From the NCBI GenBank assembly GCA_965261455.1, contig OZ253453.1, positions 3,511,372 through 3,575,371 on the forward strand: a stretch of DNA of 64,000 nucleotides, in the 5' to 3' direction. The notes below the pieces were generated by a model, which saw only the letters and a list, made by a program, of their open reading frames with translations, was not told the origin of the DNA and did not search any database. Positions 3,629 to 48,143 of the stretch are shown here, piece by piece (position 1 is the first letter of the stretch; the number at the start of each line of letters is the position of its first letter). Source of the DNA: Dehalococcoidia bacterium (GTDB lineage: Bacteria > Chloroflexota > Dehalococcoidia > SHYB01). Position numbers and translations under genes: made by a program.

Positions 3629-3752
3629 GACCGTCCCCTTCTGCAGTCGGTTCCATTCTAGTCGGGCGGCGCAAATGGCGGCGCGCCAGCGCCTGGGGCG
3701 ATTTTGTGCGAATGACCTAAAGAGCCCGACGCCAAACACGCCCCGCCCGCGC

Positions 3753-4112
3753 TGCCTCCTGTAGGGGCGTCCCTTGTGGGCGCCCTCCGGCCTCCCGAGG
3801 AAGACTGAGAGCGGCCTCCGCCGCCCCGTTGGCGTCTATTCCGCCGGCGCCGAGAACACCAGCGCCGCGTTCTGTCCCCCAAACCCAAAGGAGTTGGACA
3901 GTACGAGCCCCAGGGGCCGCCGGAGCGGAGCGCCCCGCACGCAGTCGATCGCCAGGCCGTCGTCGAGGTGCTCGCAGTTGATGGTTGGAGGCACGGTTCC
4001 CGAGGCGATGGCACGCGCCGCCGCTGTCCCCTCGGGATCGGGGCGTGTCTCGTGGAGGCCGTCGGTCGTCGCGCCGTAGCCGGAGAGCTCGGCGTAGATC
4101 CGCGCTCCAGCG
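3753..4112 (-). pseudogene. displaced/duplicated 3' fragment of a fabF paralog (KAS II C-terminus plus ~75 bp downstream REP), with an internal ~220-bp deletion relative to fabF
   Basis: Nucleotide homology (~85-90%) to 5088-5340 and 5558-5655. The minus-strand frame encodes AIASGTVPPTINCEHLDDGLAIDCVRGAPLRRPLGLVLSNSFGFGGQNAALVFSAP versus FabF ...AIVSGTVPPTINCEHLDDGLSIDCVRGAPRQGSLRLVLSNAFGFGGQNAALVFSAPPR. The deletion junction sits at a GATGGC microhomology. Confidence 0.6.
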
Positions 4113-4115
4113 CCC

Positions 4116-4620
4116 CCCGCCAGCCAATTTTCCGCGCCAATGATACTTGACAGGCCTTGTCAAGGGGGTTTATCGTTACCGTAGCGAACATGTGTTCTCC
4201 GCTGAGCGTCCCAAGGAATGCATGTTCCGCGCCTCCCGCAAGGGAGCGTGCACCTGCGCTGGGCCGCCCTCTAAGGTAGTCCCAGCGCCGCGCCTCCCGT
4301 AAGGGAGCGTGCACCCGCGTTGGGCTGCCCTCTAAGGTAGTCCAGCGCCGCGCCTCCCGTAAGGGAGCGTGCACCCCGCGTCGGCAGACCCCCTTCGGGG
4401 GCCTCCCCCGGCGCCGCGCCTCCCCGCGAGGGGAGTGTGCAACTGCGCCGGACCACCCATCAGTGCGTGTGCCGGCGCGCGCCTCCCCGCAAGGAGAGTG
4501 TGCGACTGCGCCAGGCAAAGGCCCTCCGGGGCCTTGCTTGGCGCGCCCCGCCCAAAGGTAGACGTGCGCCCAAAGCGCGCGCCCCGGCCCCTAGCGAAAG
4601 CCTCGCGCCCCGCGAGGCGG
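4116..4620 (+). repeat. structured repeat element, copy A. It has a boundary motif GGCGCGGAAAATTGGCTG, a near-palindrome CTTGACAGGCCTTGTCAAG, a Cheo-like box, and five degenerate ~60-bp tandem units (4229-4512) each containing a CTCCC-GNRA-GGGAG hairpin. It continues into a hairpin-rich leader ending at the RBS of the 4625 gene.
   Basis: Direct reading. Units begin at 4229, 4290, 4350, 4416 and 4479. Loops are GCAA/GTAA/GCGA with compensatory stem changes (CTCCC/GGGAG versus CTCCCC/GGGGAG). An inverted second copy lies at 26270-26745. Confidence 0.6.
4185..4198. promoter_or_regulatory. candidate LexA (Cheo-type) operator CGAACATGTGTTCT
   Basis: Perfect match to the Gram-positive/Chloroflexi-type consensus CGAAC-RNRY-GTTCG half-sites (GAAC-N4-GTTC), located ~430 nt upstream of the terS-like gene and just 3' of the TTGACA-containing palindrome. 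Confidence 0.4.
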
Positions 4621-4624
4621 AAAG

Positions 4625-5062
4625 GTGAGACTCATGCCCCACAAGCCCCGATCTTCCTCCCGCAAGCGGAAGATCACCGTCCGAGCGCGGCAGCGCATCT
4701 TCCTCGATAGGTTCGCCGCCGTCGGCGTCATGACCCCAAGCGCCGATGCCGCCGGCCTCCCCCTCAAGACCATCGCCCAATGGCTCAATGATGACCGAGA
4801 CTTCCGGGAAGCCTTCGACGAGGCCAAGCTCCGCTTCCACGATCAGCTCGAAGAGGCAATCGTCAACCGAATCAATGGCGTCGATCAACGCAGGAACGAC
4901 AACCTCCTGCGTTTCAAGACACAGGCCGAGCTCCCCGAAAAGTACGGCCGGCCGGGGAAGAAGCCCAAGGAGAGAGACCACCATTGTCTGACCTGGGACG
5001 ATCTAGAGCGCATTACCGAAGAAGCCAACGCCGAAGCCGCATCCAGATCGCCCGCCGCCTAG
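4625..5062 (+). CDS. phage small-terminase-like HTH protein (N-terminal HTH domain typical of TerS / prophage small DNA-binding proteins)
   Basis: Pattern F-L-x2-FA-x2-G-x4-SA-x-AAG-x4-T-x3-WL-x2-D-x2-F-x-EAFDEAK...LEEA common to phage terminase small-subunit HTH domains; AAAGGTGAG RBS; basic N-terminus. Confidence 0.5.
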   Translation: MRLMPHKPRSSSRKRKITVRARQRIFLDRFAAVGVMTPSADAAGLPLKTIAQWLNDDRDFREAFDEAKLRFHDQLEEAIVNRINGVDQRRNDNLLRFKTQAELPEKYGRPGKKPKERDHHCLTWDDLERITEEANAEAASRSPAA

Positions 5063-5162
5063 TCCTTTCTGCGAGACGGAGCGCATGCGCCTCCTGCAGG
5101 GGCGTCCCTTGTGGGCGGCTCCCGAGGAAGACTGAGAGTGGCCTCCGCCGCCCCGTTGGCGT

Positions 5163-6395
5163 CTATCGCGGAGGCGCCGAGAACACCAGCGCCGCGTTCT
5201 GCCCCCCGAAACCGAAGGCGTTGGACAGCACCAGCCGCAGCGAGCCCTGACGCGGAGCGCCCCGCACGCAGTCGATCGACAGGCCGTCGTCGAGGTGCTC
5301 GCAGTTGATCGTCGGAGGGACCGTTCCCGACACGATGGCCTTGACCGCCGCGACGGCTTGGGCCGCCCCCGAGGCGCCCAGCATGTGCCCCGTCATCGAC
5401 TTCATCGCCGTGACCGGGAGGCCGCCCAACGCCTCGCCGAGAGCCGCGCCCAGCGCCCGCACCTCCGCGGCGTCGCCCGCTTGGGTGCCGGCGGCGTGGG
5501 CGAAGACGGCGCTCACCTCGCGGGGCTCCGCCTCCGCCTTCTCCAGCGCCCTCCCGATGGCGCGCGCCGCCGCCGCTCCGTCGGGATCGGGGCGTGTCTC
5601 GTGGAGGCCGTCGGTCGTCGCGCCGTAGCCGGCAAGCTCGGCGTAGACCCGCGCTCCGCGTCGCCGCGCGTGCTCGAGGTCCTCCAGCACCAACGCCGCG
5701 GCCCCCTCTGCGAGCACGAACCCATCGCGGTCGCGGTCGAAGGGCCTGCAGGCGCGCTCCGGCTCATCGTTGCGGCGCGACAGCGCTCCCAGCGCGTCGT
5801 CCCCGGCCAGGGTTAGCGGCGTCACGCACGCCTCGGCGGCCCCCGCCAGCATCACCGACGCGTCGCCCCGCCGCACGATCTCCGCCGCCTCGCCGATGGC
5901 GTGGCCGCCCGTGGCGCACGCCGACGCGATGGCGAAGCCCGGCCCCCGCAGGTCCAGCAGCATCGCCGCCTGCGCCGCCGCCATGTTGCTCAGCATCCGC
6001 GGGATCAGGAAGGGGCTCACTCCCTTGGCCCCCGCGCCGAGCGCCGACGCGGCCTCCAGGGCCGAGCTCTCGCCCCCGTGGCTCGATCCGAGCACCAGAC
6101 CCGCTTCGTAGGGGTCATGGCCTTCGATGCCGGCGTCACGCCACGCCTCCAGCGCCGCGGCGGCGCCGAACCAGGCGTAGCGGTCGAAGCGCCGCGCCCG
6201 CCGCCGTTCGACCTCGGCGGGCGGCTCGAAGCCGACGACCTCGCCGGCGATGCGGACGGGAAACGCCGAGGCGTCGAACAGGGTGATGGGACGGACACCG
6301 GAGCGCCCCGCACAGAGGGCCGCCCAAAAGCCGGCCACGCCGGTGCCCACCGGGCTGACCACGCCCAAGCCGGTGACCGCGACCCTACGGCTCAT
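5163..6395 (-). CDS. fabF: beta-ketoacyl-ACP synthase II (KAS II)
   Basis: Active-site Cys in ASACATGG, catalytic His residues (HETRPD, GHMLGASG), C-terminal NAFGFGGQNAALVF; start taken at MSRRVAVTGLG (the listed ORF starts 7 codons earlier). Confidence 0.85.
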   Translation of the reverse strand: MSRRVAVTGLGVVSPVGTGVAGFWAALCAGRSGVRPITLFDASAFPVRIAGEVVGFEPPAEVERRRARRFDRYAWFGAAAALEAWRDAGIEGHDPYEAGLVLGSSHGGESSALEAASALGAGAKGVSPFLIPRMLSNMAAAQAAMLLDLRGPGFAIASACATGGHAIGEAAEIVRRGDASVMLAGAAEACVTPLTLAGDDALGALSRRNDEPERACRPFDRDRDGFVLAEGAAALVLEDLEHARRRGARVYAELAGYGATTDGLHETRPDPDGAAAARAIGRALEKAEAEPREVSAVFAHAAGTQAGDAAEVRALGAALGEALGGLPVTAMKSMTGHMLGASGAAQAVAAVKAIVSGTVPPTINCEHLDDGLSIDCVRGAPRQGSLRLVLSNAFGFGGQNAALVFSAPPR

Positions 6396-6450
6396 GTCCG
6401 CAACGCCACCACACACCTCTCCCCCTCGGGGGAGACTGAGAGAGGGCCGT
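6396..6450. repeat. REP-like palindromic element (CCTCTCCCCCTCGGGGGAGACTGAGAGAGGG)
   Basis: Inverted repeat TCTCCCCC-tcg-GGGGGAGA. The same family occurs at 5090-5160, 26746-27172, 32290-32530, 35790-35830 and 44578-44640. Confidence 0.4.
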
Positions 6451-14716: not shown

Positions 14717-17700
14717 TCAGCGCCAGTCGTGGGCGGCTGGCATCGGGACCGTTGCATCGACGGTCTCGATGTCGGAGACGATGATGTCCGTCGTGCCGTC
14801 CCACCGGGAGACGACGCCCCCGGCCTGGATGACTTGGCTCCTGAGCTTCCCGCGGCAGCGGGCGAAGATCCGCGGCCAGAGGATGAGCTGCACGTCCCCG
14901 GTCTCGTCCTCGATGGTGACGAACACCGTGCCGTGCCTTCCCCGTGGGTGCTGCCGGGCGATGGGCCACCCCGCGACCAGCACCTCCTCGCCGTCGCCGC
15001 ATCCCTCCACGGCGTCGGCGGGCAGGACCCGGGGGTCCAGCACCGGCCGCACGAACTCCATGAGGTGGCCCCTAGGGTAGAGGCCCATGACCCGGTACTC
15101 GGTCGCCATCTTCTCGTATTCGGTGAAGTCGGCGAGTTCGGGGACGCCGCCCTGCGTCGATACGGGCAGGGCCCGCTGCCCCTTGCCGGAGGGACGGATG
15201 GCCAGGCCGGCGTCCCAGAGAGCCTCCCTGCGGTTGAGGGTCACGTCGTCGAAGGCCCCGGCCATGGCCAGCGACTCCACGGCCGCGGGCCGGAGGCCCG
15301 TCCGCCGCACCAGGTCCCCCGCACCGGAGTAGGGGCCGCCACGCTCCCGCTCCTCGACGATGGCCTCCGCCGACTCGGCTCCGACATCCTTTACGAGCTG
15401 AAGGCCCAGCAGCACCGAGCCCTCGTCGGGGATGCACCGGGCCCGGCTGCGGTTCACGCAGGGGTTTAGGAAGGGGACGCCGAAGCGCCGGGCGTCCTCC
15501 TTGAGGGTCTCGATGGGATAGAAGCCCATGGGCTGGTTGTTCATGAGCGCGGTGAAGAACTCCAGCGGGTGATGGCGCTTCAGCCAGGCGGCCTGGTAGG
15601 CGGTGACCGCGAAGGCGTGGGAGTGCGACTCGGGGAACATGTAGTGCCCGTTGATCTTGCCGAAGATCTTTGTGGCCATGTCCTCCGGGACCCCGTTTGC
15701 CCCGGCGCCCTCGAGGAACCGCCGCCGGTGCATGGCGATCAGGTGCTCGGCGTTGGGCTTGGCGAAGGCCCGCCTGATCTCATCGGCCTGAGCGGCGGTT
15801 AAGCCCGCGACGTCCATGATGAGTTGGACGACCTGCTCCTGCCAGACGATGATCCCGTAGCCCCGTTCGAGGGCGCGCTTTTCCAGCGGGTGGTCGTACT
15901 CCCACGCCGCCCCGTGCCGGTAACGTTCGACGAATTGGGAGACGGCGCTGCCCTGCACACCGACGCCGGGCCGGATGAGCGCGACTTGGTAGGCGAGGTC
16001 GAGGAGGTTGCGCGAGTTCAGCCGCTGCGCCAGCTTGAGCTGGGCGGGCGACTGCAGCAGGAAGACGCCCTTGGCCCCGCCGTCGTTGATCATGTCGTAG
16101 ACGGCGGGGTCCTCCGGGTCCACCTTGCCGAGGTCGAGCCTTTTCCCCTCGCGCCGTTCGACCAGATCGAGGGCCTCCTCCATCTGGTCCAGCACCGGCA
16201 GCGAGAGCAGGTCGATCTTGGCGAAGCCGGCGTCGGCGACGCTGTCCTTGTCCCAGTCCATGATGTAGCGCCCATCCATGGCCCCGGCCCGCATGGGGAC
16301 CATCTCCGGGATGGGGGAGCTGCTGAGGACCATGCCGCCGACATGCTGGCCCAGCGCCTTGGGCGCGCCGATCAGTTGCGGCGTGAGCGCCGCCAGGTCC
16401 CTCCAACCCGGTGCGTCCACCCGGTCCTTGAACGAGGGAAGCGCCAGCATCTCCTCCCGCAGGAGCCCTCCGCCGCCGTCCTCGACTTGCTTGGACAGCC
16501 TCCGCAGGTCCTCCTTCGGCAGGCCGAGGGCCTTCCCCAGGTCCTGAATAACGCCCTTGAGGGAGTAGGTGGCGACGGCCCCGGCGAGGACGGCAAACTC
16601 CGGCCCGAAGTGGCGGTGGACCCGCCGGATCAGCTCGTCGCGGAGCGCGCGGGGGAAGTCTAGGTCGATGTCGGGCAGCATGCTCATGTCCTCCGACATG
16701 AACCGCTCCAGGGTGAGGTCCCAGCGGAGGGGATTGACGTGGCTGATGCCGATTAGGTAGCCGGCGAGCAGCGCCACCGAGGAGCCCCTGCCCCTGCCAG
16801 GGGGCCGCTCCTCGAGGGGCGTCTCGGGGGAGGTCAGCCCCTTTTCCTCCATGATCCGCTGGGCGAGCAGGACGATCTCGCGGTAGAGGAGCAGAAAGCC
16901 AGCGAGGTTGTGTCTGCGTATCAGCCGCATCTCCTCGGCGAGGCGCCGCTCCACGCGCGGCGACACTGAGCCATAGCGGCGGACGGCGGCCTCGATGCAG
17001 AGCCGCTCCAGGTAGCTTTCGGCGGTGTACCCCTCCGGCGTCGCGGGGTCGGGGAGGGTGTAGCCCAAGTCGGTGGCGAGGTTGAAGGAGCACCGCTCCG
17101 CGATCCGCAGGGTGTTGGCGAGGGCGTCGGGGCGGTCCTGAAACAGGCGCGCCATCTGCATGGGAGACTTCAAGTACAGATGATGGTTCGGGCGGATGTA
17201 AGGGAGGGCCTGGTCGATGGTGGTGTTTCGCCTCGCCGCCGCCAACGCGTGTTGGAGGCGGTAGCGCTCGGGGGCGTGGTAGAGGACGTCGTTGGTGGCG
17301 GCCAGCGGAGCGCCCGCCTCGTCGGCCAAGGCCGCCAGCTCGCGGTTGCGGCGAGTGTCCCCGGAGAGGAAGTTGCGCTGCACTTCGACGAATACCGAGT
17401 CCGGGCCGAACCACTCCACGTACTGCCTGAGCAGGCCCGCGGCCTCCTCCCGGCGGCCGTCGAGCGCCAGGTTGGCGAGCCGTCCGTCGCGGCCGCCGGT
17501 GAGGAGGACCACGCCGCCGGCATGCTCGGACAGGTGGGTGGGGTCCAGCCTGGGCTGTCTCCGGTCGGTGGCGTTGGCTAGGGTGAACAGCCGGGAGATG
17601 TTGGCATAGCCCTGCCGCGTCTTGGCTAGGAGGACCAGACGGGAGCCGTCGCTGAGGGTCAACTCGCCCCCGGTGATGGGCTGGACGCCGAGGCTGTTAG

Positions 17701-17863
17701 CGAGGCGGGCGAACTCCAGCGCCCCGCAGAGGTTGGCGTCGGTGAGAGCCAGGGCGTCGTAGCCGTGCTCGCCCGCCTGGGCCAGCAGCTCGTGGGTGTG
17801 CGACGCGCCCAAGCCGAAGGAGTAGAAGCTCGCTGCATGCAACTCGACGTAGCCGGCGGTCAT
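14717..17863 (-). CDS. dnaE2: error-prone DNA polymerase III alpha subunit (DnaE2/ImuC)
   Basis: PHP-domain N-terminus MTAGYVELHAASFYSFGLGASHTHEL, ~1048 aa, directly downstream of an ImuB-like gene (16-nt gap). Confidence 0.85.
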   Translation of the reverse strand: MTAGYVELHAASFYSFGLGASHTHELLAQAGEHGYDALALTDANLCGALEFARLANSLGVQPITGGELTLSDGSRLVLLAKTRQGYANISRLFTLANATDRRQPRLDPTHLSEHAGGVVLLTGGRDGRLANLALDGRREEAAGLLRQYVEWFGPDSVFVEVQRNFLSGDTRRNRELAALADEAGAPLAATNDVLYHAPERYRLQHALAAARRNTTIDQALPYIRPNHHLYLKSPMQMARLFQDRPDALANTLRIAERCSFNLATDLGYTLPDPATPEGYTAESYLERLCIEAAVRRYGSVSPRVERRLAEEMRLIRRHNLAGFLLLYREIVLLAQRIMEEKGLTSPETPLEERPPGRGRGSSVALLAGYLIGISHVNPLRWDLTLERFMSEDMSMLPDIDLDFPRALRDELIRRVHRHFGPEFAVLAGAVATYSLKGVIQDLGKALGLPKEDLRRLSKQVEDGGGGLLREEMLALPSFKDRVDAPGWRDLAALTPQLIGAPKALGQHVGGMVLSSSPIPEMVPMRAGAMDGRYIMDWDKDSVADAGFAKIDLLSLPVLDQMEEALDLVERREGKRLDLGKVDPEDPAVYDMINDGGAKGVFLLQSPAQLKLAQRLNSRNLLDLAYQVALIRPGVGVQGSAVSQFVERYRHGAAWEYDHPLEKRALERGYGIIVWQEQVVQLIMDVAGLTAAQADEIRRAFAKPNAEHLIAMHRRRFLEGAGANGVPEDMATKIFGKINGHYMFPESHSHAFAVTAYQAAWLKRHHPLEFFTALMNNQPMGFYPIETLKEDARRFGVPFLNPCVNRSRARCIPDEGSVLLGLQLVKDVGAESAEAIVEERERGGPYSGAGDLVRRTGLRPAAVESLAMAGAFDDVTLNRREALWDAGLAIRPSGKGQRALPVSTQGGVPELADFTEYEKMATEYRVMGLYPRGHLMEFVRPVLDPRVLPADAVEGCGDGEEVLVAGWPIARQHPRGRHGTVFVTIEDETGDVQLILWPRIFARCRGKLRSQVIQAGGVVSRWDGTTDIIVSDIETVDATVPMPAAHDWR

Positions 17864-17879
17864 ACGCGGACGCCCGCTC

Positions 17880-19391
17880 CTAGGCGCTCTGCCGGTACCA
17901 GCGGGGCTCGTCGCGGTCACGGAAGAGCGTGAGCTGCGACCCGTCCTCGACACGGATCCGGTGGTAGGTGCGGGCGAGGGGCCTGGGCATCCACCAGAGG
18001 TCGAAGCTCCACGTGTCCTCGACGTCGTCCACCCGCCGCCAGTGCCCGCCCAGCCGGACCGCCGCGGGCCGGCGGTCCGGCCCCTCCCGGACCGCGACGG
18101 CGACGGGCGCGGAGAGCGAGCCGATGTCCTGCCGCCCTGAAGGATCGATGGGGACTCGCAGCGCGCGCATCTCCGGCGCCGGGTGCCAGGGAGCGACCTC
18201 GACTACCCGATAGAGGGCGTGGCCACCATCCATGTGGCCCCGCAGCCGCCGGTCGACCTCGACGAGCCGCTGCTCCCGGCTGTCCCGTATGTCCTCGGTC
18301 AACCCGAGCTGCAGGCCCGACTCGCCGGTGAGGTCGGAGAGGGCGAGGGTCACCTCCTCGACAGGCGCCCGCGGGTGGTCGGTCTCCAGCCGGCTCCTCA
18401 CGATGCGGGAGGCGCTCTGCCAATTCCCCGCCGCCTGCTTGAAGCGGAACGTTCGCTCCCAGGTCGCCTCCCGGTGGAGCAGGCACTCCACAGCGGCGCC
18501 GCCCGCGTACCTTCCCCGCATCTCGGGACGCGCGTACGCCTTCCTCAGCAGGGAGTCGACCGCGACGAAGAGGACTTCGATGGAGGCCGAGGTGAACGGG
18601 AGCGCGGCGTGCTCGGCCACGGCCTCCTCGTACTTCATGGGGACCAGGGGACTGTCGTCGACGCCGCGGGAAAGCCTCCATGCCCTCCGGCCCGCCGGTC
18701 CGAATTGGTCGACGATCGCTCCCTCCGGCATGGCGGCCACGTCGCCCATGGCGCGCTGGCCGAAGTGCTTGAGGCCGGTCTTGACCTCAGGGGTGATGGG
18801 CAGCAGGTCTATTGATTGGGGCGCGAGGAAGGCCCGGACGTCTGCGGGGGCTTGGCGGGCCCCGAGCGCCTCGGCGGTCCGCGCGGCGACAAGGGCTGGG
18901 AACTTGGCGTCCGCCACGCCGATACGCGGGGCGAAGTAGGTGGGGACGGCGTCCAGCAGGGCGCAGACGAGCCCGGCCTCCCCGCGGTACAGCCGTTCCA
19001 GACCGTCCATCCGCACGTAGGCCACCCCCAGCTCCGAGCGCTCGACGCGGTCGCCGACCGCCTGAAGGGAGGTGAGCATCCGGTGAAACGCCTTGCGGTA
19101 GGCGGGCTCGTCCGCCTCAATGACGGCGGCCTCGGCATGGCGCGACAAGGCCTGCTCCAACGTCATGCCCGCGGCCACCCCCACGGTGGCCGGGAGGAAG
19201 TCGACGACCACAGGCCTGCCGCCGGCGCGGTCGACGATGACGGCGGGCCTGCCGTCGAGATGCGGCTGCCGTCTCAGCTCGATCCTTGCCCGCAGGTGTG
19301 TGACGAGCACGCAGGCGACCCGCAAGGCGCCTCCTCGGTTACGAGAGTCCCCCGGAACGACCGGGGACGAAGGATGATAGAGAACGAACAT
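17880..19391 (-). CDS. imuB: ImuB-like Y-family polymerase paralog (mutasome accessory subunit)
   Basis: N-terminal Y-family palm-like region (VIVDRAGGRPVVVDF...AGMTLEQAL...VGDRVERSELGVAYVRMDGLERLY). Co-directional with and immediately upstream of dnaE2. The exact start is uncertain. Confidence 0.65.
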   Translation of the reverse strand: MFVLYHPSSPVVPGDSRNRGGALRVACVLVTHLRARIELRRQPHLDGRPAVIVDRAGGRPVVVDFLPATVGVAAGMTLEQALSRHAEAAVIEADEPAYRKAFHRMLTSLQAVGDRVERSELGVAYVRMDGLERLYRGEAGLVCALLDAVPTYFAPRIGVADAKFPALVAARTAEALGARQAPADVRAFLAPQSIDLLPITPEVKTGLKHFGQRAMGDVAAMPEGAIVDQFGPAGRRAWRLSRGVDDSPLVPMKYEEAVAEHAALPFTSASIEVLFVAVDSLLRKAYARPEMRGRYAGGAAVECLLHREATWERTFRFKQAAGNWQSASRIVRSRLETDHPRAPVEEVTLALSDLTGESGLQLGLTEDIRDSREQRLVEVDRRLRGHMDGGHALYRVVEVAPWHPAPEMRALRVPIDPSGRQDIGSLSAPVAVAVREGPDRRPAAVRLGGHWRRVDDVEDTWSFDLWWMPRPLARTYHRIRVEDGSQLTLFRDRDEPRWYRQSA

Positions 19392-19398: not shown

Positions 19399-19438
19399 GT
19401 CAAAGGGTCGATGACCCAGGGCCGAGGCGGCGAAGGGG

Positions 19439-20641
19439 CTAGATGATTCCGCGGTCGCGGAGCTCGACGATGCGCTCCCAGGAGAGGCCGAGGTCTTGGA
19501 GGACTTCCTCGGTGTGAGCGCCGAACTCTGGCGCCGTCGAGCGCGGCTTCCCCGGCGTCTCGCTGAGGCGGACGGGGAGGCCGACTTGCGTGATGGAGCC
19601 TGCCTCGGGGTGCTCCAGCTCGACGAGAAGCTCGTTGGCGATAACCTGGGGGTCGTTGGGGATGTCGTCGTATTTTTGGACGGGGCCGCAGAGGACGTCC
19701 TTGGCCCGCAGCAGGACGATCCACTCGTCGCGGGTCTTAGTGACGAAGGCGCGGTCCATGATCGGGATGAGCTCGCCGGCGTGTTGGCCGCGGGCGCGGA
19801 CCTCGGAGAAGCGCGGGTCATCGCGCAGCTCCTCAATGCCGAGGACCTCGCACAGCGCGGGCCAGTAGCGGTCGGGCTGGATGCCGCCGAGCGCGATCCA
19901 GCGATCGTCCTTGCAGCGGTAGATGTTGAATAAGGGGTTGTAGTTCGTCGCCCGGGGCCGGGGCAGCGGCATCTCGTCGTTCATCAGATAGCCGTTGAGG
20001 GCGAGCGCCTGGAGCGTCAGCTGCCCGCCGAGCTGAGAGACCTCGACGTGCTGGCCCTTGCCGGTGCGCTCGCGGTCGAAGAGGGCGAGCATGATCCCGT
20101 AGGCCATGGTGATGGCGCCGGTCTGGTCGGCGAGGCCGCCGCTGGAGCGGTAGGAGAGCTCGGGGTCGGCGATCGAGAGCAGTTCCATCAGGCCGCCGCG
20201 GGCCTGTCCGAGGATGTCGAATACGCCTTGTTTGGCTTCGGGGCCGCGCGAACCGAGGCCGGAGACGGAGGCGTAGACGATGCGGGGGTTGATCTTGCGG
20301 ACGGTCTCGTAATCGACCTTCAGTCGCTCGACGACGCCGACGCGGAAGTTCTGGGTGATCACGTCGCACCGCTTGGCGAGATCGTAGAAGATCTCGCGGC
20401 CGTCGTCGGACTTGAGGTTGAGCGTGATGCTCCGCTTGTTGCGGTTCATCGACTCGAAGTAGGTGGGGACGCGGCGTCCGGAGCGCCCCATGGGGGTGAG
20501 GGCGCGGCCGGGGTCGCCGTTGACGGGGTCTTCGACCTTGATCACCTCGGCGCCCATGTCCGAGAGCATCACGGTGCCCCAGGGGCCGTTCTGGTAGATG
20601 GTCAGGTCGAGGATGGTGATGCCGTCGAGTGGGCCTTGCAT
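19439..20641 (-). CDS. CoA-transferase family III (CaiB/BaiF-like)
   Basis: N-terminal GPLDGITILDLT...GPWGTVMLSDMGAEVIKVEDP signature of family III CoA transferases. Confidence 0.8.
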   Translation of the reverse strand: MQGPLDGITILDLTIYQNGPWGTVMLSDMGAEVIKVEDPVNGDPGRALTPMGRSGRRVPTYFESMNRNKRSITLNLKSDDGREIFYDLAKRCDVITQNFRVGVVERLKVDYETVRKINPRIVYASVSGLGSRGPEAKQGVFDILGQARGGLMELLSIADPELSYRSSGGLADQTGAITMAYGIMLALFDRERTGKGQHVEVSQLGGQLTLQALALNGYLMNDEMPLPRPRATNYNPLFNIYRCKDDRWIALGGIQPDRYWPALCEVLGIEELRDDPRFSEVRARGQHAGELIPIMDRAFVTKTRDEWIVLLRAKDVLCGPVQKYDDIPNDPQVIANELLVELEHPEAGSITQVGLPVRLSETPGKPRSTAPEFGAHTEEVLQDLGLSWERIVELRDRGII

Positions 20642-20663
20642 GGCGTCCTCCGATACTGGCGGG

Positions 20664-21872
20664 CTAGATCACGCCGCGGTCCCGAAAGCCTTCGAGGTCT
20701 TCCCAGGAGTAGCCGGCGGCGAGCAGTACGTCTTCGGTGTGAGCGCCGAACTCGGGGGCCGTCGAGCGGGGCTTCGCCGGCGTCTCGCTGAACCGGATGG
20801 GGCAGCCCGCCTGAATCAGCGTCCCCTCCGACGGATGCTCAAGTTCGACGACGTAGTCGTTGGCGCGCACCTGGGGGTCGTGGATTACATCTTCGTAGTC
20901 CTGCACCGGCGCGGCGAGCACGTCGGCGTCGTTGAACGCCTTCACCCACTCGTCGCGGTCCTTGGCAGCGAAGGCGTGGTCCATGATCTCCATGAGCTCA
21001 ATGGCGTTGTCGTTGCGCGGGCCGTTGCCGTTGAACTTGGAGTCGTGCTCCAGGTCCTGGATGCCGAGGATGCGGCAGATGTCGGGCCAGTAGCGGTCGC
21101 CCTGGACGCAGCCCAGAGCGAGCCACTTGCCGTCGCGGGCGGGGTAGATGTGGAAGAGGGGGCTGTTGCCGGCTTTGCCGCGCTGCTTACCCTGGGGCTT
21201 ATCGCCGGCGATGGTGTAGCGCCCGATGCTGAGTCCCTGGAGGAGCATCTGGCCGCCAAGCTGGGAGGTCTGGACGTGCTGGCCCTTGCCGGTGCGCTCG
21301 CGGGCCATGAGGCCGGCGAGGACGGCGTAGGCGAGGGTGATCGCCCCCACCTGATCGGCGATGCCCGCGCCCGCGCCGCGGTAGGTGGGGGCGTCCTCGC
21401 CGGCGGAGAGCATGTTCATCAGCCCCCCGCGCGACAGGCCCAGGATGTCGTAGACGCCCTGCTTTGAGTCGGGGCCGAGCGGCCCCCAGCCGGAGACGCT
21501 GCCGTAGACGATGCGGGGATTGATCGCGCGGACGGTCTCGTAGTCCACCTTCAGGCGCTCGACGACACCGAGACGGAAGTTCTGGGTGATGGCGTCGACG
21601 TCCTTGGCGATCCGGTAGAAGATCTCACGGCCCTCGTCGGACTGCAGGTTGAGCGTCATGCTCTTCTTGTTGCGGTTCAGGACCTGAAAGTAGGAGAACG
21701 AGGCGCGGGTCGAGCCGCCGGCGGGGAGAAGGCCGCGGCCGGGGTCGCCGGTCACCGGGTGCTCGACCTTGATCACGTCGGCGCCCAAGTCGGAGAGCAT
21801 CACCGTCGCCCACGGCCCGTTCTGCCAGATGGTCAGATCGAGGATGGTGATGCCGTCCAGGGGGCCGGGCAT
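20664..21872 (-). CDS. CoA-transferase family III (CaiB/BaiF-like), paralog of the preceding gene
   Basis: MPGPLDGITILDLTIWQNGPWATVMLSDLGADVIKVEHP. Internal ATG at 21872 with GGAGG RBS. The listed 631-aa ORF is a Pro-rich read-through extension. Confidence 0.8.
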   Translation of the reverse strand: MPGPLDGITILDLTIWQNGPWATVMLSDLGADVIKVEHPVTGDPGRGLLPAGGSTRASFSYFQVLNRNKKSMTLNLQSDEGREIFYRIAKDVDAITQNFRLGVVERLKVDYETVRAINPRIVYGSVSGWGPLGPDSKQGVYDILGLSRGGLMNMLSAGEDAPTYRGAGAGIADQVGAITLAYAVLAGLMARERTGKGQHVQTSQLGGQMLLQGLSIGRYTIAGDKPQGKQRGKAGNSPLFHIYPARDGKWLALGCVQGDRYWPDICRILGIQDLEHDSKFNGNGPRNDNAIELMEIMDHAFAAKDRDEWVKAFNDADVLAAPVQDYEDVIHDPQVRANDYVVELEHPSEGTLIQAGCPIRFSETPAKPRSTAPEFGAHTEDVLLAAGYSWEDLEGFRDRGVI

Positions 21873-23205: not shown

Positions 23206-26200
23206 ATGTTGCCTTTTGACGCTGAGCGCGGGAGTGGGGTTGAAGGTCGCATCATGGCGTCGATGGCGTGCTCACAGGCGATTCCAGTAGAATCGCTTCT
23301 AGCAGAGGTGTACACCGACTTGACAACGCTTCCTCACCCGTCCGCCGCCGACTTCGCCGCCAAGTGGCGGGACAACCCCCGCCGGGAGCGCGCTTCGTCG
23401 CAGGAGCACTTCATCGACCTCTGCCGCCTGCTCGGTATGCCTACGCCCAACGAGGCCGACCCGACCGGCGACCGATACACGTTCGAGGCCGGGGCCGAGC
23501 GGACCAGCACGGGCAAGCGGGGCTGGGCCGACGTCTGGAAACGCGGCCATTTCGGCTGGGAGTACAAGGGCGCCCATGCCGACCTCGCCGCCGCCTACCG
23601 ACAGTTGCTTGACTATCGCGAGGCGCTGGAGAACCCGCCGCTGCTCGTCGTCAGCGACATGGAGCGAGTCGAGGTCCACACCAACTTCACCAATACCCGG
23701 ACTGCCGTCCATATTGTGACGCTCGCCGACCTTTCGGCGGGCGGCGAGCGGACCGCCGAGGCGTTGCGCATCCTGCGGGCGGTGATGAGCGAGCCCGAGG
23801 CGTTGCGGCCCAGGCAGACGCCCGAAGAGGTTACGAAGGAGGCCGCGTCCCGCTTCGCGGAACTCGCCCGTTCGATGCAGGAGCGCGGGCACGAACCGGA
23901 GGCGGTCGCCCACTTCCTCAACCGTGTGCTCTTCTGCCTCTTCGCCGAGGATGTCGCGTTGCTCCCCAAGCGGCTCATGAGCGACCTGATATCGTCGCGC
24001 GCCGACGAGCCGGAGGAGTTCACGGAGGGCCTCGCCGAGCTGTTCCGCCTGATGGCGGACCGGAAGGCAAGCCGCTTCTTCGGGACACAGCGGGTTGAGT
24101 GGTTCAACGGGGGCCTGTTCGACGATGACGCGACGCTCGCCTTCACCCGCGAGGAGCTTCGTATTGTCGGCGTCGCCTCCTCGCTCGATTGGTCACAGGT
24201 CGAGCCGGCGATTCTTGGCACGCTGTTCGAGCGGGGACTCGATCCCGCCAAGCGCGGCCAGTTGGGCGCCCACTACACCGACCACGAGAAGATCATGATG
24301 GTCGTTGAGCCGGTGGTGATGGCGCCCCTGCGCCGCGAGTTCGACGCCATGCGCGAGCAGGTCGACGAGCTGATGAGCGGCCGCGATCCGAGTCCACTTA
24401 CCCGCGACGGAGAGCGCCGGGCACGGCTGCCCGCATGGGAGCACAAGGCTGAGGCAGGGTGGCGCGCCTTTCTGGAACGGCTGCGCGCGGTGCGCGTGCT
24501 CGACCCGGCCTGCGGCTCGGGGAATTTCCTCTACGTCACGCTGCGGTTGCTCAAGGACCTGGAGCACGAGGCCATCCGCTGGGGTGCGGAGCGGCTGCGC
24601 ATCACCGGGGAGTTCCCGCAAGTCGGCCCGCACAATGTTTTGGGGATCGAGACTAACGCCTACGCGAAGGAGCTGGCGGGCGTCGCGATCTGGATCGGAC
24701 ACATTCAGTGGATGCTGGACCACGGCTACGGCTTCCCCCATGACCCCGTGCTCCAGCCGCTGGACAACATCGAGCGGCGAGATGCGATTCTCGCTTACGC
24801 CGATAAGGACGATAAGAAAGTTCCCATTCCGGCGACTTGGCCGGAGGCGGAGTTCATTGTCGGCAACCCGCCGTTCTTGGGCACGAAGCTGATGCGTCAA
24901 TCGTTGGGCGATGCCTACGTCGACGATGTGTTCCTTGCCTGGAAGGGTCAAGTCGCCCGCGAATCGGACTTGGCATGCTACTGGCACGAAGATGCGCGCC
25001 GCCAGATTGTCGCGGGCCACACGAGCCGTGCCGGTCTGCTGGCAACCAACTCGATCCGGGGCGGCGCGAACCGCTTAGTGCTTAACGGAATCAAGAAGAG
25101 CGGCGATATCTTCCTGGCCTGGTCGGACGAACCTTGGGTCGTTGAGGGCGCCGCCGTCCGCATCTCGATCGTGGGCCAGGACGACGGATCTGAGGAACAG
25201 CGCGAGTTGGACGGCAAGTCCGTCGAGGCGATCAACAGCGACCTGACAGCGGGCCTCGACCTGACACAGGCCCGTATCCTCCCCGAGAATCAGGGCGTCT
25301 CGTTCATGGGCGACACGAAGGGCGGCGCGTTCGACATCCGGGGCGAAGTTGCTCGAGGGATGCTCTCGCTGCCGGCGAACGTCAATGGCCGCACCAATGC
25401 CGATGTGGTCGTGCCCTGGGTGAACGGCATGGACATCACGCGCCGACCGCGTGGCATGTTCATCATCGACTTCGGCGCGGACATGTCCGAGTCGGACGCC
25501 GCCGCGTACGAGGCGCCATTCGAGTACGCGCGCGAGCATGTGCACCCGGTACGCGCAACAAACAAGCGCGAGTCCTATAGGGACCCTTGGTGGGTGCATC
25601 TCAGGCCCCGCCCGGCGATGCGGACGGCGCTGGCTCAACGGTCGCGGTTCATTGTCACGTCGACGGTCGCGAAGCATCGCCTGTTCACCTGGGTGTCGGC
25701 GCCGACGCTTCCCGACCACCAACTCATCGCGATCGCGCGCGACGACGACTACGCCTTCGGCGTCTTGCACGCACGCGCGCACGAACTGTGGTCGCTGCGG
25801 GTGGGCACAAGCCTTGAAGACCGCCCGCGTTACACGCCGACGACGACATTCGAGACGTTCCCCTTTCCGTGGCCGCTCAATACGCCGGACACGGCGCTGA
25901 CCTCTGAGCAGCGAGGCCACCGCGACGCCATCGGGGAGGCGGCGCGGGCGCTGGACGAGGCGCGCCGGCGCTGGCTCAACCCGTCGGAGTGGGTGCGCGA
26001 GGAGCCCGACGTCCTGCCCTCGCTTCCAGCGCGCCTGCTGCCGGTTGACGAAGATGCGGCCAAGCAACTGCGCAAGCGCACGCTTACCAACCTCTACAAC
26101 GCCCGCCCCACGTGGCTCGCCAACCTGCACGCGAATCTCGACGCCGCCGTGTTCGCCGCCTATGGCTGGCCGGAGAGACTTGACGATGGTGCATTGTTGG

Positions 26201-26262
26201 AGCGGCTGCTCGACCTCAACTTCGCGAGGGACCGAGCAAGCGGCCGCAGCGACACCAAATAA
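23206..26262 (+). CDS. MmeI-family type IIL restriction-modification enzyme (fused N-terminal PD-(D/E)xK-like nuclease domain, gamma-class N6-adenine methyltransferase and TRD)
   Basis: N-terminal GWADVWKRGHFGWEYKG ... AYRQLLDY ... PLLVVSDMERVEV parallels the MmeI D-x9-E-x-K nuclease block; MTase motif I LDPACGSGNFLY and motif IV NPPFLG; 1018 aa; lower-GC upstream region (23000-23200). Confidence 0.75.
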   Translation: MLPFDAERGSGVEGRIMASMACSQAIPVESLLAEVYTDLTTLPHPSAADFAAKWRDNPRRERASSQEHFIDLCRLLGMPTPNEADPTGDRYTFEAGAERTSTGKRGWADVWKRGHFGWEYKGAHADLAAAYRQLLDYREALENPPLLVVSDMERVEVHTNFTNTRTAVHIVTLADLSAGGERTAEALRILRAVMSEPEALRPRQTPEEVTKEAASRFAELARSMQERGHEPEAVAHFLNRVLFCLFAEDVALLPKRLMSDLISSRADEPEEFTEGLAELFRLMADRKASRFFGTQRVEWFNGGLFDDDATLAFTREELRIVGVASSLDWSQVEPAILGTLFERGLDPAKRGQLGAHYTDHEKIMMVVEPVVMAPLRREFDAMREQVDELMSGRDPSPLTRDGERRARLPAWEHKAEAGWRAFLERLRAVRVLDPACGSGNFLYVTLRLLKDLEHEAIRWGAERLRITGEFPQVGPHNVLGIETNAYAKELAGVAIWIGHIQWMLDHGYGFPHDPVLQPLDNIERRDAILAYADKDDKKVPIPATWPEAEFIVGNPPFLGTKLMRQSLGDAYVDDVFLAWKGQVARESDLACYWHEDARRQIVAGHTSRAGLLATNSIRGGANRLVLNGIKKSGDIFLAWSDEPWVVEGAAVRISIVGQDDGSEEQRELDGKSVEAINSDLTAGLDLTQARILPENQGVSFMGDTKGGAFDIRGEVARGMLSLPANVNGRTNADVVVPWVNGMDITRRPRGMFIIDFGADMSESDAAAYEAPFEYAREHVHPVRATNKRESYRDPWWVHLRPRPAMRTALAQRSRFIVTSTVAKHRLFTWVSAPTLPDHQLIAIARDDDYAFGVLHARAHELWSLRVGTSLEDRPRYTPTTTFETFPFPWPLNTPDTALTSEQRGHRDAIGEAARALDEARRRWLNPSEWVREEPDVLPSLPARLLPVDEDAAKQLRKRTLTNLYNARPTWLANLHANLDAAVFAAYGWPERLDDGALLERLLDLNFARDRASGRSDTK

Positions 26263-26269
26263 CAGCGGC

Positions 26270-26745
26270 ACTTGGCGGCGCGGCCCCCGTCGCGGCACGT
26301 TTTGGGCGCACCGCGCCCTTTGTAGGCGTGCGTCGACCCGCGCCCAGGAGGGGGCGGGTCGACGCGGTCGCACACTCCCCTTGCGGAGAGGCGCGCGCCG
26401 GCACACGCTCAGTCGGGTGGTCCGGCGCAGGTGCACGCTCCCCTCGCGGGGAGGCGCGGCGCCGGGGACGCCACGGGGGCGAGTCGGCGCGGGTTGCACG
26501 CTCCCTTACGGGAGGCGCGGCGCCGGTTGGAGGCCCGGAGGCCCTTGGCCGGCGCAGGTGCACGCTCCCTTACGGGAGGCGCGGCGCCGGTTGGAGGCCG
26601 GGAGGCCCTTGGCCGGCGGAGGTGCACGCTCCCTTGCGGGAGGCGCAGAACACAGCTTCTCCCGCCGCTGCGCGGGGTAGCACTAATGTTCTAGGCTAAC
26701 GATAAACCCCCTTGACAAGCCTTGTCAAGTATCATCGGCGGGCAA
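26270..26745 (-). repeat. structured repeat element, copy B. It is the inverted copy of 4116-4620, with five GNRA-hairpin units (~26365-26648) and the perfect palindrome CTTGACAAGCCTTGTCAAG (26711-26729).
   Basis: The reverse complement aligns with 4116-4600, including the boundary motif CAGCCAATTTTGCCCGCCGATGATACTTGACAAGGCTTGTCAAGGGGGTTTATCGTTA. The Cheo box is degenerate here (GCACTAATGTTC). Confidence 0.6.
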
Positions 26746-27172
26746 AATTGGCTGTGGGGCCAAGGTGGAGCGGCGCCGGCCTCCCCCCGCCCCTCCGACG
26801 CGCCCTTGGGGCGCGTGCCCTCTTTCAGTTTCCCCCAGAGGGGGAAAGGCCGGAGGGGAGGGCGCCCACGAGGGGCGCCCCTACGAGATGGGAGGCGCGG
26901 CGGGTTTTGCAAGGGCCTCCAGAGGGGGAAAGGGGGATGAGCGGCCTGCTCCGCCCGTTCGAGCCGGACGCGGAATTGGCTGTGGGGCCAAGGTGGAGCG
27001 GCGCCCTCCCCACCCCGCCCCTCCGACGCGCCCTTTGGGCGCGTGCCCTCTTTCAGTTTCCCCCAGAGGGGGAAAGGCCGGAGGGGAGGGCGCCCACGAG
27101 GGGCGCCCCTACGAGATGGGAGGCGCGGCGCGGCGGGTTTTGCAAGGGCCTCCAGAGGGGGAGCGTAGGGAG
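26746..27172. repeat. 2 x ~228-bp tandem repeat built from REP-like hairpins (GCGCCCTTGGGGCGC, TTTCCCCCAGAGGGGGAAA, GGGCGCCCACGAGGGGCGCCC, GGGTTTTGCAAGGGCCTCCAGAGGGGGA)
   Basis: Unit 1 starts at 26746 and unit 2 at 26974, both beginning AATTGGCTGTGGGGCCAAGGTGGAGCGGCGCC. Near-identical units. Confidence 0.55.
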
Positions 27173-32289: not shown

Positions 32290-32530
32290 CCCGGCCTCGC
32301 TCCCTCTGGAGCCCTTTGCGTAACTTGGCGGGCGGGGAGGGAGCAGCGCCCTTCGGGCGCTCGCGCGCCTAGTGGCGCGCGCCCTCTCTCAGTCTCCCCC
32401 AGAGGGGGAGAGGCTTAAGCCAGCCCCACTCCGCTCCCCTCCGCCAAGACTCCGGTGGGTTTTGCAAAGATCTCCTCTGGCGGAGACTAAGAGGGGGCGC
32501 GCCGACAGGTGCGCCGACGCCCAAAGGGTG
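32290..32530. repeat. cluster of REP-like palindromes (core CCCTCTCTCAGTCTCCCCCAGAGGGGGAGAGG)
   Basis: Same hairpin family as 6396-6450 and 26746-27172; also shares the GGGTTTTGCAA motif. Confidence 0.4.
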
Positions 32531-47273: not shown

Positions 47274-48143
47274 CTAGCCGGCGCCCCATGTTTCGCCGAA
47301 CTGGACGGTGAAGAGTATCTGGCCCGTCATCACGTCCGGTGTGACGTTGGCGAGGTAGAGGAGGGCCGGCCCGATGAGCTCCGGCGTGCAGGGGTCGCGG
47401 GGGAACTCGCCCATGAAGTCGTAGTCGTCGGAGTTCGTCTCGATGCCGCCTTCGGTCAGGATCATGCCGGGCGCGAGGGCGTTGACCGCCACGCCGTGCT
47501 GCGCCATCTCGCGGGCTAGGACCTGGGTCTGGCGATTCAGGCCGTGCTTGGTCGTGGTGTAACAGATGATGCCCTGCGCCGACTTGAGCCTGCCGCTCGC
47601 CGTCGGGTCCGGCGAACCCGTCGTGATGTTTATCACCGAGCCCGACCCCCGCTCGATCATGTGGGGCAGGACGTGCTTGGCGCAGAGGTACGGCCCGAGC
47701 ATGTTCACCCGGAAGACGGCCTCGTACATCTCCGGCGTCACCTCCAAGGTGTTGAATCGGGGAAAGATGCCGGCGTTGCTCACCATGACGTCGATGCGTC
47801 CGAAGCGGTCGAGCGCCGCCTGCGCCATCGCGCGCACGTCGTCCTCGTTCCCTACGTCGCAGCGCACCGCCATCGCCGTGCCGCCCGCTTCCTCGATTGA
47901 CGCCACGGTCTCCTGCAGGCTGCCCGGTAGGAGGCCGGCCAACTGCCGCGCCCCCTTCCCCGCGTGCATTTCGCCGGGCATGTGCATCGGCGCGTCGGTC
48001 AGCGCGGCCGGCTTGTCGGTGCGGGCCCCGACGACGACGCTCGCCCCTGCCAAGGCCAGCGCTTGCGCGTAGGACCGGCCCGTGCCGCGGCTCGCCCCGG
48101 TGACAATCGCGACCTTGCCTTCAAGACTCCGTTCGATGCCCAT
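47274..48143 (-). CDS. SDR-family oxidoreductase
   Basis: VTGASRGTG cofactor motif and YxxxK (YTTTKHGL) catalytic motif. Confidence 0.8.
   Translation of the reverse strand: MGIERSLEGKVAIVTGASRGTGRSYAQALALAGASVVVGARTDKPAALTDAPMHMPGEMHAGKGARQLAGLLPGSLQETVASIEEAGGTAMAVRCDVGNEDDVRAMAQAALDRFGRIDVMVSNAGIFPRFNTLEVTPEMYEAVFRVNMLGPYLCAKHVLPHMIERGSGSVINITTGSPDPTASGRLKSAQGIICYTTTKHGLNRQTQVLAREMAQHGVAVNALAPGMILTEGGIETNSDDYDFMGEFPRDPCTPELIGPALLYLANVTPDVMTGQILFTVQFGETWGAG

Follow-up and report, generated by a model that had tools for sequence, protein, structure and literature searches.

Lambda cosB and many pac sites are located at or next to the gene for the small terminase (terS). The boxB element of lambda nut is a short hairpin with a GNRA-like loop that is bound by an arginine-rich peptide, and the put element of phage HK022 is a two-hairpin unit of about 65-70 nt. 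In the Staphylococcus aureus pathogenicity islands (SaPI), operon I is regulated by LexA and encodes terS (PMC3152322). [quoted passage not shown] Between the box and terS lies a tandem array of five units, each composed of two hairpins, A and B; we know of no SaPI operon with such a tandem-hairpin leader. The known part of the locus is a satellite-type terS cassette with a structured leader and predicted SOS control, and the new part is the tandem two-hairpin RNA module, which is present in multiple copies and also stands free of any gene. We consider it an even chance that the module specifies an SOS-induced structured RNA, displaying multiple hairpin-A sites to a trans-acting partner, with hairpin B as an insulating spacer.

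A covariance model (CM) built from 22 related units was run over the window, and its matches were exactly 10 units, five on each strand (E 1e-12 to 0.04), with no further match better than E 0.3. A 23-nt core pattern gave six matches in the window against 0.01 expected by chance. Given these two results, the array is real and not a chance pattern. Copy 1 consists of five units of 59-69 nt at 4229-4547 on the + strand, and copy 2, inverted relative to copy 1, of five units at 26329-26646 on the - strand. Tandem Repeats Finder (TRF) detected a 61-nt period at 4227-4381 and the inverted second array at 26350-26646, and a repeat finder paired the segments 4103-4184, 4223-4262, 4342-4420 and 4406-4510 with 26363-26772 on the opposite strand. 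The five tandem units that a first-pass annotation of this DNA had placed at 4229-4512 were confirmed by the CM, TRF and the repeat finder, with the extent now reaching 4547; the promoter, the LexA-type box and the multi-copy nature of the module had been overlooked. The features of the two copies are as follows.

4103-4146, + strand: conserved upstream block CCAGCCAATTTTCCGCGCCAATGATAC; inverted repeat 4103-4184 versus 26691-26772, 83%
4147-4176, + strand: sigma-70-type promoter; -35 TTGACA at 4147-4152, 18-nt spacer, -10 TATCGT at 4171-4176
4186-4197, + strand: LexA-type (Cheo) box GAACATGTGTTC, at the predicted start, nine bases past the -10
4186-4227, + strand: predicted 5' closing stem-loop; RNA of the LexA box (GAACAUG...) pairs with ...CAUGUUC just 5' of unit 1, in both the minimum free energy (MFE) and the centroid structure
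4229-4289, + strand: unit 1; hairpin A (GCAA loop) and hairpin B; CM 83.9 bits, E 1e-12; fold
4290-4349, + strand: unit 2; hairpin A (GUAA loop) and hairpin B; CM 76.2 bits; fold
4350-4415, + strand: unit 3; hairpin A (GUAA) and a longer hairpin B capped CCCCC-UUC-GGGGG; CM 50 bits; fold
4416-4478, + strand: unit 4; hairpin A stem CUCCCC/GGGGAG with GCGA loop; CM 39.7 bits over 4416-4473
4479-4547, + strand: unit 5 (terminal); GCAA loop, hairpin B extended with cap AAGGCCC-UCCG-GGGCCUU; CM 25.3 bits, E 0.036; fold
4548-4633, + strand: conserved tail, ending ...GCGCCCAAAGCGCGCGCC; homology of the terS-less arrays stops at ...CCGCGA just past the tail
4634-5062, + strand: orphan small terminase gene (terS), product of 142 aa; basic N-terminal arm, then a predicted helix-turn-helix; PHROG match
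26285-26772, - strand: copy 2 module with promoter, box, five units (26646-26329) and tail, and no downstream gene; from repeats, promoter scan, CM and fold
26728-26723 (-35) and 26704-26699 (-10), - strand: copy 2 promoter; scan 10/12
26691-26680, - strand: copy 2 box GAACAUUAGUGC, one mismatch
26594-26646, 26519-26582, 26458-26518, 26400-26457 and 26329-26394, - strand: copy 2 units, CM matches

The internal unit number differs between arrays, and the last two units plus the tail (...GCGCCCAAAACGCACCGCGA) are conserved in all of them: unit 4 represents a conserved penultimate type that is present in every array, and the terminal unit type is conserved as well. The array of copy 1 ends 87 nt upstream of the terS start codon. 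In this copy only, the tail is followed by a hairpin at 4600-4618, GCCUCGCG-CCC-CGCGAGGC, located just 5' of the ribosome-binding site, and by a Shine-Dalgarno sequence AAAGGUGA at 4621-4628. Both of the further hairpins that had been noted upstream of the gene exist: one, AAGGCCC-UCCG-GGGCCUU, forms the tip of hairpin B in unit 5, and the other is that at 4600-4618.

Both arrays are located directly downstream of the same strong sigma-70-like promoter, which scored 10/12 for both copies in a promoter scan (1 hit versus 0.0 in shuffled sequences). The -35 element sits within a palindrome, TTGACAGGCCTTGTCAA (4147-4163), and the block CCAATTT...GATGATAC is kept in all array modules. The box GAACATGTGTTC is the only perfect GAAC-N4-GTTC in the 64-kb window. 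LexA of Dehalococcoides reportedly recognizes this same box. The LexA consensus of B. subtilis is CGAACN4GTTCG (quoted in PMC3091678). In all those promoters of array-less relatives that were read, by eye, GAAC and GTTC are kept and the N4 varies; fixed half-sites around a variable N4 are characteristic of a dimeric operator. In about 35 loci with TerS proteins of only 35-50% identity, the 50-nt promoter block has hardly changed. As an additional observation, a near-invariant block of 50-60 nt, composed of CCAATTT, the palindrome TTGACAGGCCTTGTCAA, GGGGGTTTATCGTTA and the box (for instance 4120-4197, and in the relatives' loci L019 and L032), is conserved beyond the need of a promoter and one operator, and the palindrome over the -35 may represent a second operator. 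Another observation concerns the imuB-dnaE2 mutagenesis cassette at 14717-19391 (- strand), with a CoA-transferase gene starting 48 bp upstream. Cassettes of this type are usually LexA-regulated; no perfect GAAC-N4-GTTC was found near this one.

The distribution of the module was then followed in relatives, whose loci are designated here by L numbers. The protein database contains 18 members of the TerS family, each from an assembly derived from metagenomes. A genome scan for the promoter motif gave 22 loci, of which 20 are in Dehalococcoidia metagenome-assembled genomes (MAGs), 11 of them in a single MAG; the remaining two are in one other Chloroflexota MAG and in one Streptomyces, the latter an apparent chance match. 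A metagenome scan for the promoter added two loci. The same promoter and box head terS-terL (L015, L024, L027), terS-terL-portal-capsid (L003) and a portal gene (L012, L028), and L032 has a like layout with an unannotated terL-like open reading frame (ORF) after terS. In the array-less loci, a short leader composed of a small hairpin and an intrinsic terminator takes the position of the array, and this order of promoter, box and short leader before packaging genes appears to be the ancestral design. In one clade the two-hairpin array has taken the place of the terminator leader. Such arrays number about 17, with 2-11 units each: 10 have terS behind them, at least five do not (copy 2, L013, L021, L029, L030), and two are cut by the end of the sequence. 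The terS-less arrays face convergent genes, and their homology ends at the same tail. In a distant clade, represented by L006 and L023, the array contains hairpin A without hairpin B, repeats every ~39 nt with linkers of 8-12 nt, and is placed after the terminator.

A search for hairpin A with a loop-agnostic pattern on both strands of about 315 kb gave 101 candidates, 93 of which are located downstream of the promoter, on its strand and no more than 1.4 kb away; of those away from the promoter, five belong to a contig that starts inside an array and three are apparent chance matches. Because 93 of the 101 candidates are promoter-linked and some arrays have no gene, the array forms a discrete module coupled to the promoter and is more than a leader of terS. 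Its description in the first-pass annotation as a structured terS leader fits the array of copy 1, which precedes terS on the same strand, but is too narrow, since copy 2 and at least four arrays of relatives are geneless. In a close relative, a 1.6-Mb contig contains both an orphan terS with array and, about 560 kb away, a complete head module under the same promoter.

Several observations on the relatives stand on their own. A 189-bp unit is repeated 2.8 times in L003 (5247-5787) and is present as single copies in L004, L007 and L014; in L031 a structured segment of about 125 nt is duplicated at ~440-700; runs of ~10-bp CGTGAACGTT-like repeats follow the terminator in L014, L015, L026 and L028; and in L016 (3613-4689, - strand) a copy of the promoter is followed by a transposase gene of insertion-sequence type (phrog_3598, E 2e-82).

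The position of the array in place of a terminator raises the alternative that it acts in cis on elongation by RNA polymerase or on Rho, either by antitermination of nut/boxB or put type or as a Rho-loading attenuator that replaced the leader terminator. Relatives that lack the array but keep a terminator between promoter and terS have the design of a late operon, and this terminator is gone in the subfamily of the window; no intrinsic terminator was found on the + strand at copy 1. As with the cis RNA elements lambda nut and HK022 put, the array lies just past a phage-type promoter, and TerS has a basic arm; we take the GNRA hairpin and its flanks to resemble boxB/boxA, and the two-hairpin units of ~65 nt to resemble put. 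This kind of control is nevertheless improbable in our view. The array of L006/L023 follows the leader terminator and cannot rescue it, stand-alone arrays have no operon to control, neither sequence nor Rfam comparison gave a match, and nut and put, as far as known, occur as single sites, never in arrays of 2-11 units.

The folding of the array was compared between the two strands. On the promoter strand, z-scores against shuffled sequences were -8.55 for copy 1 and -7.43 for copy 2, versus -2.9 and -4.2, respectively, on the opposite strand, and the MFE of the promoter-strand fold of copy 1 was almost equal to that of the centroid. Moreover, 12 U.G wobbles in the upper stems correspond to A.C mismatches on the other strand. 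The fold z-scores and the one-strand wobbles bear out the previous description of the element as structured and strand-specific, lying on the same strand as the gene downstream. The pairing of the box RNA in the 5' closing stem is kept in variant form in relatives, as GAACGUAUG/CAUACGUUC in L002 and as GAACAUAUG/CUAUGUUC in L001.

Hairpin A, GCGCCUCCC-GNRA-GGGAG-Y-GUGC, is nearly invariant. In its full form, 5'-GCGC-C-UCCC-[GYRA]-GGGA-G-(Y)-GUGC-3', it has a stem of 9-10 bp, made of an outer stem GCGC/GUGC with G.U at the third pair, one bulged pyrimidine, and an inner stem of 5-6 pairs. The G.U of the lower stem is kept in 96 of 98 hairpins, and in all of 82 hairpins a purine follows the stem on its 3' side, with ACC there in 59. 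In hairpin B the base, GCGCCGG/CCGGCGC, is conserved and the tip varies, being in some units merely a longer stem capped by UUCG or UCCG. The hairpin CTCCC/GGGAG described before is real, but its stem was drawn too short, and the outer GCGC/GUGC and the bulge have been added here; likewise, the GGCGC...GCGCC said to bracket each unit exists, but is the stem of the second hairpin, B, inside the unit.

The lower stem of hairpin A brings in a second alternative, that the array is cut into RNAs of about 61 nt, hairpin A plus ACC serving as an acceptor-like minihelix of RNase P/CCA type or as a Cas6-like handle, in a manner resembling the ToxI, P1 c4 and P4 CI RNAs. RNase P cuts substrates composed of a hairpin plus RCC, and it matures the c4 RNA of phage P1 and the CI RNA of P4. 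The invariant pairs G1-C, C2-G and G3.U, the 3' purine and the frequent ACC are in agreement with such processing, as is the regular unit size. We give it little credence, because the 3' flank varies (AAC, GAC and GCC also occur, and CACC or CAAC in the distant subfamily), the tips of hairpin B are not guide-like, several being UUCG- or UCCG-capped stems, ARAGORN found no tRNA-like gene in the array, and Rfam gave no tRNA, RNase P-substrate or CRISPR-DR match. As a separate observation, the lower stem G1-C, C2-G, G3.U together with A-C-C is seen in all units (for instance 4229-4254), and presumably resembles an acceptor minihelix of tRNA-Ala type or an RNase P model substrate.

The loops of hairpin A in the window are GCAA, GTAA, GTAA, GCGA and GCAA in both copies. 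A loop-agnostic parse of the 82 hairpins of the subfamily gave GCAA in 30, GUAA in 27, GCGA in 21 and GUGA in four. When loop changes were counted on a minimum spanning tree of 84 units, built from the non-loop sequence, 31 of the 46 changes were at position 2 and the other 15 at position 3; positions 1 and 4 had none. The GNRA constraint in the subfamily of the window is real even if changes were heavily over-counted. The only deviation there is GCUA, one allele in three later loci that sits on a doubly changed stem, CUCUCC/GGAGAG, and the loops of L006/L023 are of non-GNRA type (AGAGCA, CAUUCA, UCGU and others). GNRA is selected in the clade of the window but does not define the family, and the earlier statement that the loops are always GNRA holds for the window and its subfamily but neither for the GCUA allele nor for L006/L023.

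The stem covariation that had been read from the ten units of the window turned out to be weak, as hairpin A never varies in the seed alignment and a single pair of hairpin B changes on both sides. CUCCC/GGGAG versus CUCCCC/GGGGAG is an inserted C-G pair and CUCUCC/GGGGAG a U.G wobble; neither is covariation. Convincing stem covariation comes only from the distant subfamily L006/L023, in which 16 hairpins carry 15 different upper stems (such as CUUCUC/GAGAAG, CUCCUU/AAGGAG, CUUCGCA/UGCGAAG and CUCGCC/GGUGAG). Cognate arms were paired in 101 of 105 cells, a level reached by 0 of 20000 permutations, the statistic being somewhat inflated by the partial orthology of the two loci. Pairs were counted by anchored parsing and on a CM-fitted alignment, because a first MAFFT alignment misplaced the units with the extra C-G pair and a later one left a one-column register ambiguity in hairpin B. 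The CM-fitted alignment of 93 matches, which leans towards its own model, had 95.9% of cells paired, and six pairs changed on both sides versus 1.6 in shuffles. Where orthologous arrays differ, the changes either preserve a wobble or are compensated. Genomes with terS genes at a dS of 0.43-0.56 have the same hairpin A stem, and this conservation points to specific recognition, presumably of the lower stem with its G.U, bulge and flanks, and not to just any hairpin.

The main rival to an RNA function is a duplex DNA site of pac/cos type for the adjacent TerS, the repeats of which would load the TerS ring; additional arrays would then be packaging starts, as in lateral transduction or in gene transfer agent (GTA)-like packaging. 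As with known pac and cosB sites, the array is composed of repeated units, lies immediately upstream of terS, and differs in sequence between lineages, different TerS lineages having different repeats at the same place (the CGTGAACGTT-like runs of about 10 bp, between terminator and terS in L015, and those of L014, L026 and L028). Hairpin A is invariant and does not covary in the subfamily of the window, and a head module with terL, portal and capsid genes is present on the same contig as the orphan terS and array of the close relative. We consider this explanation unlikely on balance. A helix-turn-helix protein that reads duplex DNA needs no complementarity between half-sites, yet the upper stems of L006/L023 covary and the wobbles suit one strand only; every array keeps the promoter in the same orientation, which would be unnecessary for a DNA site, and several copies lack terS; cruciform extrusion would be disfavoured by the bulge and the G.T. 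No phage or viral contig was found to carry the unit, the promoter or a member of the TerS family, and blastn of 4100-5120 against phages and plasmids gave no match.

The number of units differs between closely related loci. L033 has two units (~2760-2900) versus four in the near-identical L034 and L035, and L001b lacks exactly one unit relative to the window, indicating that arrays gain and lose whole units on short time scales. Units are also more alike within an array than between arrays. These features are compatible with a selfish or neutral repeat, in which a leader hairpin was expanded by slippage and unequal crossing-over, the module spread as a non-autonomous insertion, and the array is without function; the discrete ends of the module and its location at variable slots rich in defence genes agree with this scheme. 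It is very improbable, however, because the sequence and pairing of hairpin A remain intact across genomes at dS of about 0.5, and the GNRA-preserving loop changes together with the wobble-only stem changes point to each hairpin being under selection. Neither a transposase nor terminal inverted repeats nor a target duplication was identified.

The layout of a 27-nt hairpin repeat alternating with segments of about 34 nt superficially resembles CRISPR, and we take hairpin A with GCGUG to recall, loosely, type I-C repeats. The array might be a degenerate CRISPR array or an RNA anti-CRISPR that mimics the host repeat; RNA anti-CRISPRs mimicking repeats exist (PMC10651486). Such a relation is highly improbable for the present array. 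The supposed spacers are self-complementary, form conserved hairpins, are duplicated within arrays and are conserved between loci, spacers are altogether absent from the distant subfamily, Pfam scans of the larger ORFs of the window gave no cas domain, and no CRISPR-DR match was obtained from Rfam at E up to 10. The CRISPR likeness had correctly been called superficial in the first-pass annotation, on the ground of the duplicated spacers.

In the RNA reading that we prefer, a strong promoter would be held off by the LexA-type operator until DNA is damaged. The transcript would start at about 4183-4186, its 5' end would pair with the segment just 5' of unit 1, and the RNA is predicted to fold as a string of independent two-hairpin units. 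Hairpin A would be the functional element, recognized by a putative trans-acting partner, and hairpin B a stable spacer, free at its tip, that lets each A hairpin fold on its own. An array would offer 2-11 copies of hairpin A per transcript, with several transcripts per genome. The RNA of copy 1 would also be the 5' leader of the orphan terS, and copy 2 a stand-alone non-coding RNA gene. The module was probably derived from the packaging-operon promoter of a Dehalococcoidia prophage-like element by exchange of the short leader for the array.

Several points weigh against this reading. From the sequence we infer the transcription, the start site, the control by LexA and the role of hairpin A as a binding site, and the partner of hairpin A is represented by candidates only, namely TerS, which would bind by its basic N-terminal arm, or a protein of a helper phage or of the host. 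Hairpin B has no bias for the promoter strand, the G-rich opposite strand folding slightly better and with more G.U pairs; the evidence for the strand therefore rests on hairpin A and the z-scores of the whole array. The stem of hairpin A is essentially invariant in the subfamily of the window, with no covariation, and fits a conserved DNA site too. Arrays have from 2 to 11 units, and only two are present in one that is linked to terS (L033), so multiplicity may not matter. In other lineages the repeats at this position, between promoter and packaging gene, are quite different, which fits a TerS-specific DNA site or a repeat-prone leader as readily as an RNA function. Finally, the terS-less arrays mostly have a box with one mismatch (GTGC, GTAC, GTCC), as does copy 2.

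The gene downstream of copy 1 had been described as a terS-like gene with a helix-turn-helix, and the match to phrog_4044 (E 7e-13) supports the terS assignment; phrog_1482 was matched at E 4e-4, and no Pfam match was found for the product. Its start had been set at GTG 4625, and we place it instead at ATG 4634, preceded by the Shine-Dalgarno sequence at 4621-4628, in agreement with the close homologues, which all start with MPHK. Homologues of this terS directly precede terL, portal and capsid genes in L003, L015, L024 and L027. In an AlphaFold2 model of TerS (pLDDT 71.5), residues 16-80 are confident, and the top Foldseek matches of the model were 2ao9 and the Sf6 gp1 small terminase, with probabilities of 0.92-0.98 and weak E values of 0.1-0.5 over 66-110 residues. 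The N-terminal arm is rich in arginine and lysine. Among orthologues the ratio of nonsynonymous to synonymous substitution (dN/dS) was 0.25-0.5, indicating that the gene is maintained by purifying selection. Among the larger ORFs of the window that were scanned, none was found for terL, portal, capsid, integrase or cas genes, nor for a replication module, a capsid-remodelling gene or an att pair. The other ORFs scanned are ordinary chromosomal genes, and terS is thus an orphan. The locus further resembles SaPI and PICI in the paralogous terS head module under the same promoter on the contig of a relative and in the variable defence-rich slots; it differs from them in the lack of integrase, replication, capsid-remodelling and att functions among the ORFs scanned, and in the size of the cassette, about 1 kb.

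With respect to described RNA classes, the only hit in the window that passed the Rfam gathering threshold was a tRNA at 45955. The best match within the array was Burkholderiales-2, with 19 bits against a threshold of 67.9, and nothing passed for the array of L023; the array appears to match no described RNA family. CsrB and RsmZ likewise have many short hairpin repeats in variable number and several genes per genome, but CsrA sites carry GGA in the loop, whereas here the loops are of GNRA type on a conserved lower stem with G.U and bulge. A sponge of this class was rejected, as the loops are GCAA, GUAA, GCGA and GUGA and the GGGA lies inside the stem. ToxI arrays likewise consist of RNA repeats in tandem, driven by one promoter and located directly upstream of a gene for a small protein in a mobile-element context; they differ in that the downstream protein here is TerS and not an endoribonuclease of ToxN/AbiQ type, and that the units are plain 61-nt hairpins. 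A type III toxin-antitoxin system was rejected, since there is no terminator between array and gene and the gene is terS-like with no PADLOC match. Repetitive extragenic palindromes (REP) or bacterial interspersed mosaic elements (BIME) with a REP-associated tyrosine transposase (RAYT) were also rejected, because 98 of the 101 hairpin-A matches are in promoter-linked direct arrays; the only sign of a Y1 transposase was a faint Pfam match on one gene near the module of L003. The tips of hairpin B were dismissed as guides or spacers, several being only extended stems with UNCG-type caps; no target search was made. Coding by the array was ruled out, as third-position GC favours no frame and unit lengths of 59-69 nt are not multiples of three, and the 249-aa gene called over the array of L001 is spurious.

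The terS cassette of the window (4109-5118, about 1 kb) is located between an intact gene for a FabF-like ketosynthase (KS; 5163-6416, with ketoacyl-synt N and C domains) and a partial copy of it, which forms the left edge of the cassette.

3792-4108, - strand: pseudo-copy of the 3' end of the FabF-like KS gene; matches 5119-5351 and 5555-5657 with 86-92% identity

The pseudo-copy has an internal deletion of 203 bp, and its translation matches the C-terminus of KS. This duplication has the look of an insertion footprint, the inserted DNA having brought along or restored the gene's 3' end. A 22-kb island bounded by the two inverted copies was considered and rejected, as the interval holds housekeeping genes (KS, M1 peptidase, luciferase-like oxidoreductase, MFS, YgjP, dnaE2-imuB and CoA-transferases), and the order of KS, peptidase and luciferase is kept in relatives.

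Copy 2 adjoins the 3' end of a type IIG restriction-modification gene in convergent orientation, an MmeI-like restriction-methylase at 23206-26262 of the window (PADLOC, E 1e-287), and a 228-bp tandem duplication lies just upstream of copy 2. Among relatives, the slot next to the module varies, being occupied by nuclease or defence-type genes, namely a GmrSD-like gene, a gene like HNH or type II restriction endonucleases, and the 3' end of a low-GC gene (L001, 3078-5096; L033-L035, ~841-2577; in L002 and L005, upstream of the promoter), a pattern that resembles a defence-gene hotspot. GC-rich REP-like palindromes of the type GGGGCGCCCCTCGTGGGCGCCC recur between genes of the window at 3750-3790, 5085-5118, 26746-27162, 32368-32414 and 58509-58556, and elements like them precede the modules of several relatives (L013, L017, L020). 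Tandem paralogues and internal duplications were also observed, namely two CoA-transferase III genes (19436-21872), a duplicated PBP-like domain with 97% identity (33963-35111) and two short-chain dehydrogenases (47279-48604).

A bolder version, which we hold to be quite improbable, is that the array RNA works physically with the packaging machinery, as a damage-induced, multivalent partner or decoy of TerS, a functional analogue of the phi29 pRNA or an RNA mimic of pac by which satellites or hosts would capture or divert TerS, or else that it is the precursor of tRNA-acceptor-like minihelices, with G3.U and ACC. If so, it would be a new class of phage or satellite RNA that is chromosomally multi-copy and LexA-controlled. 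If the array were instead a pac site, the scattered promoter-linked sites would imply programmed packaging of chosen chromosomal regions.

The host belongs to an uncultured high-GC branch of Dehalococcoidia, a narrow lineage, and to our knowledge almost nothing is known of the mobile elements of the phylum. In this branch the module ties together DNA-damage signalling, as predicted from the box, an orphan terS of the satellite-hijack kind, and restriction or defence slots, and it may give access to the biology of phages, satellites and hosts there. The G.U wobble, the bulge and the GNRA loop together make hairpin A a candidate RNA-protein recognition module. If the RNA reading is right, these genomes would carry, at many chromosomal sites and behind an SOS-type promoter, a structured RNA motif in which a frozen GNRA hairpin alternates with spacer hairpins.

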